Source of the DNA: Fonticula-like sp. SCN 57-25
Taxonomy: Eukaryota
Direction: 5' to 3'
DNA length: 48,450 nucleotides
NCBI GenBank assembly: GCA_001724245.1
Contig: MEDX01000679.1
Location: 1 to 48,450 of the forward strand
Part shown: positions 1 to 15,997 of the stretch, one piece after another
Layout of the letters: each line of letters begins with the position of its first letter
Numbering within the stretch: the first letter of the stretch is position 1
The notes under the pieces: generated by a model
Databases searched by the model: none
What the model saw: only the letters and a program-made list of their open reading frames with translations
What the model was told of the DNA's origin: nothing
Made by a program: the position numbers and the translations under genes

Positions 1-22
1 CACGGGGCAACAGCATAATCAA
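1..22 (+). repeat. Left terminal inverted repeat (22 bp, starts CACGG)
   Basis: Perfect inverted match to 5860-5881. A 5'-CA start is typical of P-superfamily termini. Confidence 0.92.
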
Positions 23-8595: not shown

Positions 8596-10851
8596 ATGGG
8601 CGACGGCGGGAGCGCGGCACCTCGGCAGGGCGGCCACGGCGGCGGCCGAGGAGGCCAGGGATCTGGCGGACATAACAGAGGGCGCGGTCGCGGCGGCGGT
8701 GGTGGCGGTGGCGGAAAGCCCGCCGGCCAGGGCGGCCGCAACGCCCAGAAGCAACCCAATAATAGCAAGCCTGCGCAGCACGACTCGCGGCCAAAGCAGC
8801 AGCGCGATCCCAACAAGCCGACAAGAGAGGAACAGGCGCTGGTGGCCAAGGCCAAGCAGACCAAGGTACAGGGCGACGCGCTGGACAAGACCGGCGTATC
8901 GGCGGCACTGTCGCGGGACATTGAGTTTGCGCTGTACGTCTCGTCGGCATCGGTATCGCATCTCGAGGAGGCATCCGGGACGCGTCCACCGCCGCTTCCC
9001 GCTTCTTTTTATGTCGATCTTTTGAAATTGATTGATGGCGACCTGAAACACCTTATCAAGGCGCCGTACCGTTCCTTTTGGAGCTACGTTCTACACAACG
9101 CGTCGTTTGCATCGTGCATCGAGTCGTACCTGCAGCAGGCCCCTCGGTTTTACGACGCGCCCGCTGCCTCGGACGCCGGCAGCGAGCACGCGCAGCTCGA
9201 ATCGGCTGTCCGGCGGTCCGTTCTCGTCGTGATTGCGCGCATGTCCACGCTGGAAGAGTCGCCATCGTGCTACTGGACGCGCCCCGGCTACGAATCGGCG
9301 ATGCGCAAGACGGCCCTCTTTACCGTGCCCAACATCATCGACATGTGCGCTGTCTACTTCAAGGTCGCCAAGCACATATTGCCAAAGCTGCTAGAAAAGC
9401 TCTTTAGCAACTTGACGTACTTGCGCGCCGAGGCGACGCGGGAGGCGCGCAAGGTCATCGACTCGCTGACCGAGCTCGAGCCGTCCGTCCAGCAGGCCGC
9501 CGCGGGGGGCGAGGCCGCGTTCCCGTCACTTCTCGACCGGCACCACTACGTGCACGATGCGATCGAGTCGCTGCGCGCTTTTTACGCAATGTCGCCGGCC
9601 GACATTACCCACGCGGCTGTCGACGCTGGCCTTCTTCCGTACGTTCACACATATCCTTTGCAATTAAGGCTCACAATGGATCCAAAGGGTTCTTGTCAAC
9701 TGCTACCAGCGCACACTGCCGCTGTTTGTGGCGCGCAATCTGGACTCGCTCTGGTCGGAACGCGGCCGCGAGCGCCACCGCCGGCTGCAGCGGACAGCCA
9801 TCCGGTTGATATCCGACCTCGTCCAGGTGGCCGTGCTGGACCGCCTCTACGACGCGCAGAACGACATTGTGGCCTCGGCCTTCGACAATCTGATTCGCTT
9901 CATGGACCTCACGGCGGCGTTTGAGCACAGCGACGCCGACACGATCCCGTCGCAGCCGCTGCTGCTCGCCGTCAACAAGCGGCTCGACCTGCTCCGCATC
10001 CTGCACCGCCTGCGAAACGCCACCCTCCATAGCGAATATCCGCTCATACTGTTGCATTTTCATGTGTCGTTTATGTATTTGTCAAGATGTGGTTTTGTTC
10101 ACGTTTTTGCTATTTTAGTTGTGTGTATTTTCTGTGTTCACTTTTTCCATTTTTGCATTCTCTTTTGTTGATTTCCTTGACCGATCTTACAGCGTTTGAC
10201 GCCGACGCCATGCTCCGCTTCCACCTCGTCTCCCTCGACGCGCTCGTGAACCCCGTGTCGAGCGCATCCAAGCCCGCGTCATCGTACGACGGCCTCGCCG
10301 CGGCGAGCGACCCTCTTCCGGCGCCCGCGGCGTCGTCCGCCGCCATCGTGGACCCGATGCGCATGTCGCTCGTCTCGGCCGTCAAGGACATCCTGCCGGA
10401 CCTCGGCGACGCGTTCGTCGACGCGTGCCTCAAGCACTATGGCGACAACGTAGAGTCTGTCATCAACGCCCTGCTCGAGGACAATCTGCCGCCGCGGCTG
10501 GCCTCGCTCGACCGCGCCACGGGGAGGGTGCCCTTGCCCGCGGTCTACCAAGGCAAGGGCAAGCAGCCGGCCGCCGCTTCGCCAGCGCCAGCGCCGGCAC
10601 CGACGCCGGCGGCCGCGCCCGACGGGCTGCCCACGATGGCCACCGTGGTGCAGGTCACCAAGCGCGCCAAGGGAAGGCAGCCGCAGGTGCACGTCGACCT
10701 CGGCATCGACGAGAGCGAGCGGCGCGCGCTGCAAAAGTTTATGCGCGGGCGCACGTTCGACCTCGACGACGACGAGTACGACGACTCGTTTGACGAGGTG
10801 GACGTGGTACCGCTGGAGCGTGACGGGGCCGTGTTCCAGGCGCGAAACTAA
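8596..10851 (+). CDS. ASCC2: Activating signal cointegrator 1 complex subunit 2 (CUE-domain protein); introns 9639-9687 and 10036-10190
   Basis: FWSYVLHNASFASCIESYLQQAPRFYD, ARMST and LFTVPNIIDMCAVY motifs; CUE domain VKDILPDLGDAFVDACLKHYGDNVESVINALLEDNLP; DDEYDDSFD. Confidence 0.85.
10036..10190 (+). other. Predicted U12-type (minor spliceosome) AT-AC intron
   Basis: Starts ATATCCG, has branch site TTCCTTGAC at 10173-10181, and ends ..TTAC. Removal gives GA|A GCG TTT GAC and restores the ASCC2 frame. Confidence 0.75.
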
Positions 10852-11819: not shown

Positions 11820-12413
11820 CAGAGGTCTAAAGGCTTCCAAAGCAGCAGCAATGGGTAGGCAGAGGCAGCAGAGCAAAACAAAAAAAATGTGCGCCGCGCG
11901 CAGATTACGTCCTCCGATCAGATCGACAGACAACCGGGAGACGGTCGACTGTGGGCAGATCAAGGGGACGAGGAGAGCCGCCTGTGTCCGTCGGCTACCC
12001 TTGAGACAGAAAGCAAGATAGAGAGGGTTTTCGAGCGAGCCTGGAGGGAAAAGAAAGGATAAAGTTGTAGGTCGCCCTGATTATGAGGCGCTTTACCGCG
12101 GGCAAGCACTCGGTCACTAAGGAACCCACGCAGGCGAACGCTCCTCGAAACGTTAACTGCGTTCCCTGGAACGGCCTCCTGATTGGCTGAGGCCGTGGAT
12201 GGCGAGCTTCTTTCGCATTATTGGCGGATGATTTGCGCAACTTGGACGCCATTGGCTGGCCGACCACCCCTATAAAGCTTCGCCTAGGGTTCCCCACATT
12301 CTGGGGACAACAAAGGGTCCAGATGGATCGCGATTCACACGGATCGGGATCGAAAGTGACGTCGTTTGTGTTTGGCCGCGAGTCTGCCCTTGACCCTTGT
12401 TTGACACAGAAGC

Positions 12414-14173
12414 ATGCGGGGGTTGACAGTGCTGGCGCTGGTGGCGGTGGCGGTGGCCGCCGCCGCGGCGTCTGCTGTCAAGAACGACAATGCAGACCCG
12501 AGAATGATGCGTTGGACAAACGCCGAGATTGACGCCAAGCGCGCGGAGAATTTCGAGAGGGTGATGAGCGGGCTGGTGCACCAAGAACGGGTTTCGGTTG
12601 GCGTGCCAACGATTCGGTCGCGCGCTGAAGTGTCCGGCGAGGTGACGCTCCGCCTGTCCGCGTACGGCAGCGAGTTCAAGATTGACCTGCACCGCAACGA
12701 CTACCTGTTGTCGGCGGGCTGGGAGATTGACGGCGAAAAGTATGCCGTCTCGCCCGAGGAGAACTGCTTTTATATCGGCACGGCCACGGAGGTATCGTCG
12801 AGCGACGACGCGGCCCGCAGCGGCATTGCGGCGTTCAGCTTTTGCCACGAGCGTGTTGAGGGTACTTGGACGGCGGGCGGTGATACCTACGAGTTAATCT
12901 CGCACGAGCAAAACATGCGCAAGCGTGACCCCTCTTTGCCGACTCACATTGTGTACCGCATGTCGGACCTCGATGAGGAGATCGCGCGCGCGTGCGTCCC
13001 TCACGCGGCGTCCGCGCTTGCCAAGTCGTACGCGGCGCGCTCGTCGGACGACCTCGCCGATCTTTCCGGTCTGTCCGCAAAGGGCGTCGAGGCGCGCAAC
13101 ACCGATCGGTACATCCTGATGCACCTGTACGGCGACGCTGCCTTTACGCTCCGCTGGGGCACGTCTGTCGGCCTTCAGCGCCTCTACATGATTGCCAACG
13201 GCGCCGCGGCCATCTACGAGAACGGCAACACCGGCACGACTGTGTTCAACCCAAAGCTTCACTTTGCCAGCGTCAAGGTCGCGATGTGGACGCTCAACCC
13301 GTTCACCGCCTCCAAGGACGCCGACGTCTACATCGACAACCTTGCCTGGTGGTTCTCCACGCAGCCCGACGTCACCCAGGTCGCCGTGCACATCATCACG
13401 GGCCTCGACCTGCACGTGGACGGCGAGTACGCCGTCACCGGCTACGCGCCCATCGCCTCGACCTGCACGCTCGGCGTACGACCCGCTCTCTTTTTTTTGT
13501 GCAATACTGACGTGTTTTCGCAGTACATTGGCCTCGCCGAGGACTCGCCGTATTCGCTCGCCTTCACGTCAGCGACGCTGGCGCACGAGGTCGGCCACAA
13601 CCTGAACGCCATCCACGACAGCGCGCCCGGCGCGGCCAACTGCGCTGCCAGCGGCTTTGTCATGGCAGCTATCTCGTACCAGAGGGAGACGCTCGAGCAG
13701 TGGTCGTCGTGCAGCATCTCTAGGATGAACGCCTACATGACGTCGACCAACGTGCGATCCGCGGTACCTTACGCGCGCCGATGCTAACACAGACACTGTA
13801 GGCCTTTTGCATGATGGAGCCGGCTGGCGGGTTCACGCCGCCGACCGTCATGAGCGGCAACTGCCTCGGCCGCCCCACGCTCCCGCCGGGCGTCACCGAG
13901 AACGCGTACTGCGAGATGGACGGCTTGATTCTTCTCGTACGCCCGATAAGCCACTTTTTTTGTTGCTTATACTTTTTTTCTCAGTGCCCGCTCGGCCGCT
14001 GGGGCGTCTGCCCGCCGGACTTTATGTGCACCGTGCTGACCAACACCACCGCGGCGTGCCAGAATGCCGCCGGCGACATCGCCGAGCCGACCCTTGTCGG
14101 CGCCGCGTCAAGGGTCGCGGGTGTCGCGCTTGCTATGATTGCCGCGCTCGTCTCTGTTGCACTGCATAGTTAG
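12414..14173 (+). CDS. Secreted/anchored metzincin metalloprotease, reprolysin (M12B, ADAM-like) with prodomain; 3 introns
   Basis: Signal peptide; propeptide with ENCFYIG..AAFSFC and HIVYR; zinc motif HEVGHNLNAIHD; Met-turn FVMA; WSSCS; Cys-rich tail; hydrophobic C-terminus. Confidence 0.85.
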
Positions 14174-14370: not shown

Positions 14371-15997
14371 CTACTGGTGTCCGTCGTCGGCGACAGCTGC
14401 GTAGCTCTGCGTAACGACGCCGAGGTGCAGGATGCGGTCGCCCGACGAGCAGACCGGGTTGACGCTCTTTCCGACGACGATGCCGCTCGAGGGCGCCTCA
14501 TACTCGTCGACGACGTCGCCAAAGATGTTGTGGATGCGTGCAACGATCTCGCCCTCCTTGACCCAGCTGTTGATCTCGGGCACGACGGTGAGGATGCCGC
14601 CAGCGCGGGTAAACATCCAGAACGAGCGCGTGCACACGACGGGCTCAAAGTCGGCCTGGGCAAACTCGCGCGGGACCATGTTGAGCGAGCACATGATGTT
14701 TTCGACGCCGAGGAGCGCAAAGTTGATGAAGCGCTTGTGGAAGCGCTGCGGGTCGCCGACCTCGACCGTGATGGCGTGGATGCCGCGGTCGAGCGCTGCG
14801 CTGCGCAGCGACCCGTCGGGCCCGGTGTTGTGCACAATGATCTGCGGGTTCTGCAGGATGGCCATGCGCGCCGTGATCGGGTTGATCATGTTGGCGCGTA
14901 CGTAGAGCGAGTTGATGCGCCCGACCGAGGCGGTGTGCAGGTCAATGAGGTAGTTAAAGTGGCGGATGATGCGGTTGATGAGCTGGAAGGCAAACTGCTG
15001 AGAGCCAGAGCCCGACGCCTTGCCGGGCATCAGACGGTTCAGGTCAGCGCCGTCCTGGTAGCCGCGCTGCTGACGCAGAAAACCGGGCGGGTTCGCCACG
15101 GGCACAGCGACAACAATGCCGGCCAGCTCGCTCACGTCCACCTCGCGGAAAAGGCGGTGGATCAGCGGGATGCCGTTAAGCTCGTTGCCGTGAACCGCAG
15201 CGGTGATGCCGAGCACGGGGCCCTTGCGCACGCCCTTGGCAATCAAAACGGGCACGCGGATCGCCTGCGAAAGACCGTCCTGCGCAATAAAGATCCACTG
15301 GCGCGTTACAGTGCCGGGCGCAATATTGTCCAGCAGCAAGGCGTCAAGTGTCGGGAGCTCGGGCATCAGCGACATGCGCGCAGTTTCAGACACAAGATTG
15401 GACGTGGACGACGCCTCGCGGTCAAGCTCTTGAACGGGCGCAAAATTGACAAGCTCCTTGCGCGTCCACACAAGGATCTCGCGCGGCATCTGCGAGTTGC
15501 ACACAAAGCTCGCCTCCTTGATCTGAGGCAGGATCTCGCTGACAAACCCAAGCCACGGGGCGCGCTTGTCGCACTTTTTGATAATCTTCATAAAGCCGTG
15601 CTCATTCAGAGCGCCATAGTCCAGGAGACGCTCCATCTCGTCGCTCAGCGCGGACAGAGCAAGATTGACCTCGGGGCTCCCTTCATTGTCGTGGCTGCGG
15701 ATCTGGCAAGATCAACACGTCGGGTGAGCGGCTGCGTTATCGCATCCAAAAGCGTACCATCTTGATGATCTCTTCCCTGCGCTTGCGCGCGTCATCGAGC
15801 TTGCCTGAGAAAAAGGCGTCCACCTGCTTGAGCTCGCTGAGGATGGCGTTGCGCAGCTTGTCGGCGGCCTCTGGCACAGGCTTGTTGCCGCACTCTTCGA
15901 GCAGCGTGGCGAGCTGCCGCTTGAGGCCGCGGTAGTCCAGGTACCCATCCTGGTACACAAGCTGGACGCGCAGGCCGAGCTGCTTGCCAAATTTCAT
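14371..15997 (-). CDS. SPX domain fused to succinylglutamate desuccinylase/aspartoacylase (M14-like) domain, ~523 aa; intron 15703-15757
   Basis: SPX: MKFGKQL, YLDYRGLK, ELKQVDAFF, LNEHGFMKIIKKCDK. Enzyme: AAVHGNELNG, DLNRLMPG, IDLHTAS, TVEVG, plus a C-terminal barrel-sandwich-hybrid-like segment. Confidence 0.88.

Follow-up and report, generated by a model that had tools for sequence, protein, structure and literature searches.

The ASCC2 gene in the window (the whole 48,450-nt stretch of DNA that was analysed, contig C679 of a 9.5-Mb assembly of 749 contigs) carries a 155-nt AT-AC intron that is, to judge from the sequence, probably removed by a complete minor spliceosome with a shifted donor code, such that the donors suit U6atac at the expense of their pairing with U11. 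Both the snRNA variant and the class of intron are already known, and the part for which no description was found is the match between them at the donor. The intron occupies 10036..10190 on the forward strand, lies in phase 2 and splits a Glu codon. The initial annotation had placed a T-rich intron with AT and AC ends here, and its coordinates, both ends and composition are borne out: 81 of the 155 nucleotides are T (52%), and the GC content is 0.335 compared with ~0.6 in the surrounding sequence. The 5′ end is the extended donor ATATCCGCTCATAC at 10036..10049 and the 3′ end reads TTCCTTGAC-CGATCTT-AC, in which TTCCTTGAC (10173..10181) is the U12-type branch site, complementary to the U12 box GUAAGGA, with its branch A at 10180, 10 nt from the 3′ end, and the terminal AC at 10189..10190. 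Since the donor lacks the canonical TT at +7/+8, the intron is classed as a variant of the U12 type, and it is very probably a real U12-type AT-AC intron. Within the window the donor motif alone is weak evidence (RTATCCGCTCAT, with one mismatch allowed, occurs once where 0.29 occurrences are expected); it gains its weight from recurring throughout the genome alongside the branch motif.

Across the genome, 17 candidate minor introns share the consensus RTATCCGCTCATAC; they begin RTATCCGCTCAT(AC) and carry a canonical branch site. In a search that fixed only RTATCY and TTCCTTRAC, which returned 33 rows compared with 10 in the control, the 29 distinct donors included 11 of the form RTATCCGCTC (the ASCC2 intron among them), one ATATCCGTTC and none of the form RTATCCTT (binomial P ~1e-18). 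A branch-first search for TTCCTTRAC followed by YAC gave 55 rows versus 34 in the control; among its first 30 loci, eight have an ATATCCG donor 100-137 nt upstream, and one ATATCCTG lies inside coding sequence. The extended form RTATCCGYTC occurs at 65 sites in the genome and 46 in the control. A T-rich body with CCTTRAC downstream is present at 17 of these 65 sites, the body only at 3, CCTTRAC only at 4 and neither at 41, an association with a Fisher P of 3e-9 under a T cut of 0.34 that was chosen after looking. The dinucleotide AT at +11/+12 is found in 12 of the 17 intron candidates and in 6 of the 48 other sites (P 1.6e-5), A at +13 in 9/17 and 7/48, and C at +14 in 10/17 and 11/48. No search pattern included positions +11..+14; for 4 of the 16 catalogued introns the pattern included +7..+10.

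Boundaries were set for 16 of the 17 candidates, L122 being omitted because its 3′ end is ambiguous. The catalogued introns comprise 12 AT-AC and 4 GT-AG introns of 96-275 nt, distributed over phases 0, 1 and 2 as 4, 7 and 5, respectively, and their branch A lies 9-14 nt from the 3′ end. In this catalogue, which was selected on RTATCC, the donors read RTATCCG in 16/16, with C at +8 in 15/16 and TC at +9/+10 in 16/16, followed by A at +11 in 14, T at +12 in 13, A at +13 in 8 and C at +14 in 10. The 14-nt ASCC2 donor is identical to the consensus of the 16 introns. The deviation at +7/+8 that had been ascribed to this one donor is thus real but was understated, in that all the candidate minor introns have it as their consensus, it reaches to about +14 and it complements U6atac. 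Host genes identified by tool are NAA10, KTI12, syndetin/VPS50, UTP23 (donor ATATCCGC), PP2C and eIF1/SUI1, together with a FATC-domain kinase, a GTPase and an EF-hand protein; from their peptides, we presume WDR11, PCID2, ATR, OLA1, GPR137, tomosyn and MICU to be among the hosts. The NAA10 exons stop at K60 and restart at E62 of the human chain, with the split codon encoding Met, and in KTI12 the Pfam positions are continuous across the AT-AC junction. The single divergent donor, ATATCCGTTCTT, is found at L012 1400-1520 (contig C32) in the most T-rich intron, where a G·U pair is possible at +8.

Minor introns with canonical RTATCCTT donors were sought and rejected. The canonical-donor search returned 43 rows, versus 16 in the control, with 34 distinct RTATCCT donors; 24 of the 34 were read, including all 10 RTATCCTT, and none was accepted. 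The bodies of these 24 have a T content of 0.10-0.36 and lie mostly within reading frames, compared with a whole-length T content of 0.37-0.53 in the 16 catalogued introns, and the 10 donors left out of the reading include no RTATCCTT. The excess of RTATCCT over the control may arise because CCTTGAC is common on the antisense strand of coding DNA. Other donors among the first 100 of 232 matches, including GTATCCAAAT on contig C5, GTATCTGCTCAT on C48, those on C51 and C288 and others, were not accepted. The C48 locus (L154, 25404-25526), which may yet be a minor intron, combines the donor GTATCTGCTCAT with the branch TCCTTGAC; it has T in place of C6, fits U6atac at +7..+12 and has a body that is not T-rich. 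A scan of JGI metagenomes with a donor-plus-branch pattern, covering AT donors and lengths of ~106-136 nt, returned 15 loci, of which one (L203) is identical to an intron of this genome; the other 14, with L205 read in detail, were judged to be chance matches and not introns.

The search for minor snRNA genes that the initial annotation had proposed was run on the genome and found all four, each as a single match above the Rfam gathering score: U6atac with 72.8 bits (cut-off 33), U11 with 63.6 bits (39), U12 with 69.3 bits (53) and U4atac with 58.1 bits (53). The Rfam scan of the window itself was empty. Two minor-specific protein families were searched, of which the U11 snRNP protein PDCD7 is present (57.8 bits, cut-off 27) and CENATAC/CCDC84 was not found in the assembly, itself incomplete. 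The snRNA genes and PDCD7 support the earlier proposal that this organism retains U11/U12 splicing. The U11 5′ end is the usual AAAAGGG, the U12 branch box is the usual GUAAGGA, and U6 has a canonical ACAGAGA box; the predicted duplexes are −47.5 kcal/mol for U4atac/U6atac and −12.3 kcal/mol for U12/U6atac. In U6atac, nt 12-16 read GCCGA where the Rfam consensus has AAGGA, which makes it a CC variant. At 193 nt, the U11 gene (L002 1501-1693, contig C224) exceeds its 134-position model; the second stem-loop carries a long GC-rich insertion and the first a smaller one.

What does the variant box mean for the donors? In the register of the 2008 paper on the CC variant (PMC2396436), which sets AAGGA against TCCTT, U6atac A16 and G15 pair with donor +4 and +5, C14 lies opposite C6, and nt 13..6 pair with +7..+14. 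The ASCC2 donor forms all eight of the +7..+14 pairs and has one C·C mismatch at +6, at a position that pairs in human. Its duplex is predicted at −12.7 kcal/mol with the organism's own U6atac and −10.1 kcal/mol with an AG-type box, whereas a donor with TT at +7/+8 gives −5.8 kcal/mol with the own box and −14.9 kcal/mol with the AG-type box. Averaged over the 16 donors, the values are −11.1 for the own box and −8.75 for the AG-type box, and the own box is preferred by 15/16, the exception being the L012 donor, which fits the AG-type box better. With U11 unchanged, pairing at +5/+6 is possible and the pairs at +7/+8 are lost. What this fit chiefly leaves unexplained is the C·C mismatch and the weakness of the U11 helix. 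In the human model, as given in the available text, U11 pairs with +5..+10 while proteins read −1..+4 (PMC11874965). A preprint on the U11 snRNP states, in the portion accessible, that U11 has no more than four bases available to pair and that conservation of the donor past those four could reflect U6atac (10.1101/2023.12.22.573053).

An alternative hypothesis is that these are U12-type introns whose GCTC was chosen by the U11 snRNP, through a shifted register, an unseen paralogue or a changed ZMAT5/48K, in which case the fit to U6atac would be secondary or accidental. The U11 5′ end would form a 4-bp helix of about −5.8 kcal/mol with the donors, presumably U11 GGGC with +7..+10, compared with −4.8 for a TT donor, and the C·C mismatch at +6 has no explanation from U6atac. 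Moreover, U6atac/donor pairing may be dispensable, because the CC variant is reported elsewhere together with introns that misfit it, at least in the sections available of that report (PMC2396436). However, the shifted register uses U11 bases that are drawn as paired in the basal stem, the conservation at +11..+14, which matches U6atac nt 9..6, is left unexplained, and a single U11 was found in the assembly. We consider selection by U11 unlikely. The assembly is probably incomplete, since U1 and 18S rRNA, like CENATAC, were not found in it, and a second U6atac or U11 could therefore be missing; a 15-nt pattern with one mismatch detected no second U6atac copy in this incomplete assembly.

The preferred reading, that the donors are fitted to U6atac, suggests the following order of events. 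The U11 snRNP would bind first, through protein contacts at +1..+4 and a shortened RNA helix at +5/+6, and it may be on account of this helix that C6 has been kept even though it cannot pair with U6atac. U12 would pair normally with the strong branch site, and U6atac would then take the donor, with the 8-bp helix on +7..+14 offsetting the lost +6 pair. The donor would then have to satisfy both an unchanged U11 and the variant U6atac, holding C6 for the former and +7..+14 for the latter. Because the CC variant is reported from lineages whose introns misfit it, it is simplest to suppose that the variant snRNA arose before the introns adapted to it. We propose more tentatively, as a possibility that is somewhat doubtful, that U6atac has replaced U11 as the principal RNA recognising the minor 5′ splice site, every minor donor having been recast as a 12-14-nt code that complements the CC-variant U6atac, with no change in U11.

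The gene that holds the intron was assembled from three exons. Exon 1, coding from the first ATG (8596..9638, forward strand), matches human ASCC2 (6yxq_B, E 2.3e-15) and is followed by a 49-nt GT-AG intron at 9639..9687, probably of the major type, whose donor is GTACGT and which is the sole tested GT-AG pair that opens the frame. Exon 2 (9688..10035) was placed by alignment to the family profile, and exon 3 runs from 10191 to the stop codon at 10851, with support from the same profile and from a CUE domain at ~10363-10482 (Pfam CUE, 36.7 bits, cut-off 21.1). Removal of both introns yields one uninterrupted reading frame of 683 aa; against a profile built from 72 full-length homologues, chosen by length among the 150 matches listed, it scores 310 bits. 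A full HMMER search with ASCC2 gave 212 matches, a word-indexed homologue search with exon 1 gave none, and exon 2 by itself matched nothing useful in PDB or Pfam. As had been claimed, the AT and AC ends restore the frame, and retention of the 155-nt intron leads to a stop at codon 509. A perfect match to the canonical U12 donor, ATATCCTTT, lies at 9651-9659, 12 nt into the 49-nt GT-AG intron, by chance or as a relic.

The initial annotation saw no donor of the host consensus (GTRCG) in the needed phase, and no G[TC]RCG occurs within 9940-10075. Scoring of 89 open-frame variants of the junction gave 310.0 bits for AT-AC, 311.0 bits for a GC-AG pair at 10032-10192, 310.1-312.3 bits for three other non-canonical AT-start junctions and 306.6 bits for the best GT-AG variant. 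Protein homology was rejected as a means of choosing the junction, the top variants lying within 2.3 bits of each other. A second alternative is that the major spliceosome removes the GC-AG intron 10032-10192 and that the U12-like signals are unused or left from a converted minor intron. That intron leaves the frame open and scores 1 bit higher, its AG sits 2 nt past the AC, and the ASCC2 minor intron of human and mouse has a GT donor. However, its start, GCGAAT, is unlike G[TC]RCG and does not match the usual GC donor, GCAAGT; the 14-nt AT donor equals the consensus of the 16 introns, the 10 nt from branch to AC fall within the 9-14 nt range, and AT-AC ends are fixed by homology in NAA10 and KTI12. 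We regard removal as a GC-AG intron as very improbable and retain the U12-type AT-AC junction.

The snRNA genes also share a promoter. The motif TCCCACAATT is located 64-70 nt upstream of U6, U6atac, U11, U12 and U4atac, and the small-RNA promoter motif RTCCCACAATT, which we take to resemble the plant USE, has 20 sites in the genome versus 1 in the control. Rfam matches were obtained at 8 of these 20 loci (U3, RNase P, U6, U6atac, U12, U11, U4atac and U13), and no second U11 or U6atac was found among the 20 (L207-L226). About seven of the loci (L207, L209, L210, L211, L213, L217 and L218) seemingly have the same promoter before unidentified RNAs. On contig C599, the U3 and U12 genes are divergent and ~2 kb apart, with the promoter motif on each. 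That the assembly is a mixed bin whose snRNA genes and introns come from different organisms is very unlikely, for although its 749 contigs come without a completeness or contamination figure, U6, U6atac, U11, U12, U4atac, U3, U13 and RNase P each occur once under one common promoter motif, the snRNA loci have a GC content of 0.55-0.61 like that of the window, and the donors complement this assembly's own U6atac.

The introns described here share with canonical U12-type introns (RTATCCTTT, branch UCCUUAAC; PMC2846911, available text) the RTATCC start and the AT-AC and GT-AG subtypes. Also as in canonical systems, the branch lies 9-14 nt from the 3′ end, four minor snRNAs are present and phase 0 is a minority (4/16). 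Unlike canonical donors, these have G and C at +7/+8 and are conserved to +12 or +14, and all fail the "5′ rule" of RTATCCTT, in which one C may be T, as worded in the accessible part of Bartschat and Samuelsson (2010, PMC2846911). The CC variant, [GU]CCGA, was listed for Trichoplax, cnidarians, a sponge, Acanthamoeba, Physarum, Physcomitrella and oomycetes, and two listed fungi, Rhizopus and Phycomyces, have the AG form (Davila Lopez et al. 2008, PMC2396436, sections available). In that work the variant was called difficult to explain, given that the introns considered were unable to pair with it, those of Acanthamoeba and Phytophthora pairing poorly (PMC2396436). The U6atac here is likewise GCCGA, but the donors here pair.

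Two other systems offer a comparison, to the extent of the text accessible for each. In Physarum polycephalum (10.1101/2020.10.12.336362), a core minor-intron motif likewise matches a changed minor snRNA, and the preprint presents this co-evolution of branch site and U12 as the first such case; there it involves more than 20,000 introns, whereas the introns here are few and it is the donor and U6atac that match, with the branch site and U12 in canonical form. Entamoeba and Mastigamoeba (10.1101/2022.06.08.495308) likewise have an atypical, homogeneous donor with extended snRNA complementarity, but in their case it is the major spliceosome in which the first binder, U1, has co-evolved, whereas here U11 is unchanged and it is the catalytic snRNA that matches. 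A donor of this type was not found described in the available text of PMC10639083, PMC11347168 or PMC11732430, and a literature search to which subscription papers, figure logos and supplements were external found no report of this donor and none tying ASCC2 to a minor intron.

Few signals in eukaryotic genes are as strongly conserved as the U12 donor, and introns that fit a CC-variant U6atac in the register of the human model support the U6atac/donor helix from natural variation. Because the donor conforms to U6atac at +7..+14 and to U11 at +6, the roles of the two snRNAs are separated, and the question of how a CC-variant U6atac works becomes testable. If U6atac is indeed the main reader, this genome would amount to a compensatory experiment on the U6atac/donor helix, performed by nature across a whole genome, and the CC variant would be seen to exert selection on introns. 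Lineages scored with few or no minor introns might then hold ones that canonical donor matrices have missed, such that surveys based on the canonical donor may undercount minor introns in such lineages.

Human and mouse ASCC2 contain a minor intron with a GT donor of canonical type, and the preceding exon ends in CTT, according to the files available of a minor-intron table that also holds WDR11 (human and mouse) and Pcid2 (mouse) (PMC6717393). NAA10, UTP23 and OLA1 were not found in any file of that table, and VPS50, GPR137, PPM1G and MICU were not found in its file 1 (PMC6717393). The ASCC2 junction in the window lies two codons ahead of the conserved L-D-E motif (residue 387 in the vertebrate-like P0038), inside an insertion of three residues. 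The human intron presumably splits the Leu codon of this motif; the two positions may be equal or differ by two codons, and shared ancestry of the ASCC2 minor intron with a small shift is plausible. As to the organism itself, the best named matches of a ribosomal protein S18 exon (contig C71) come from early-diverging fungi (81%), with animals at 75% or below and two unnamed proteins at 83-84%; on this one gene, it is probably a fungus-side opisthokont without a close sequenced relative.

Elsewhere in the window, the open reading frame at 14371-15711 on the reverse strand apparently joins an SPX domain to what we take to be a succinylglutamate desuccinylase-like domain. The gene at 12405-13787 on the forward strand presumably encodes a secreted metalloprotease-like protein of the ADAM/reprolysin type, with a propeptide and an HEXXHXXGXXH-like motif.
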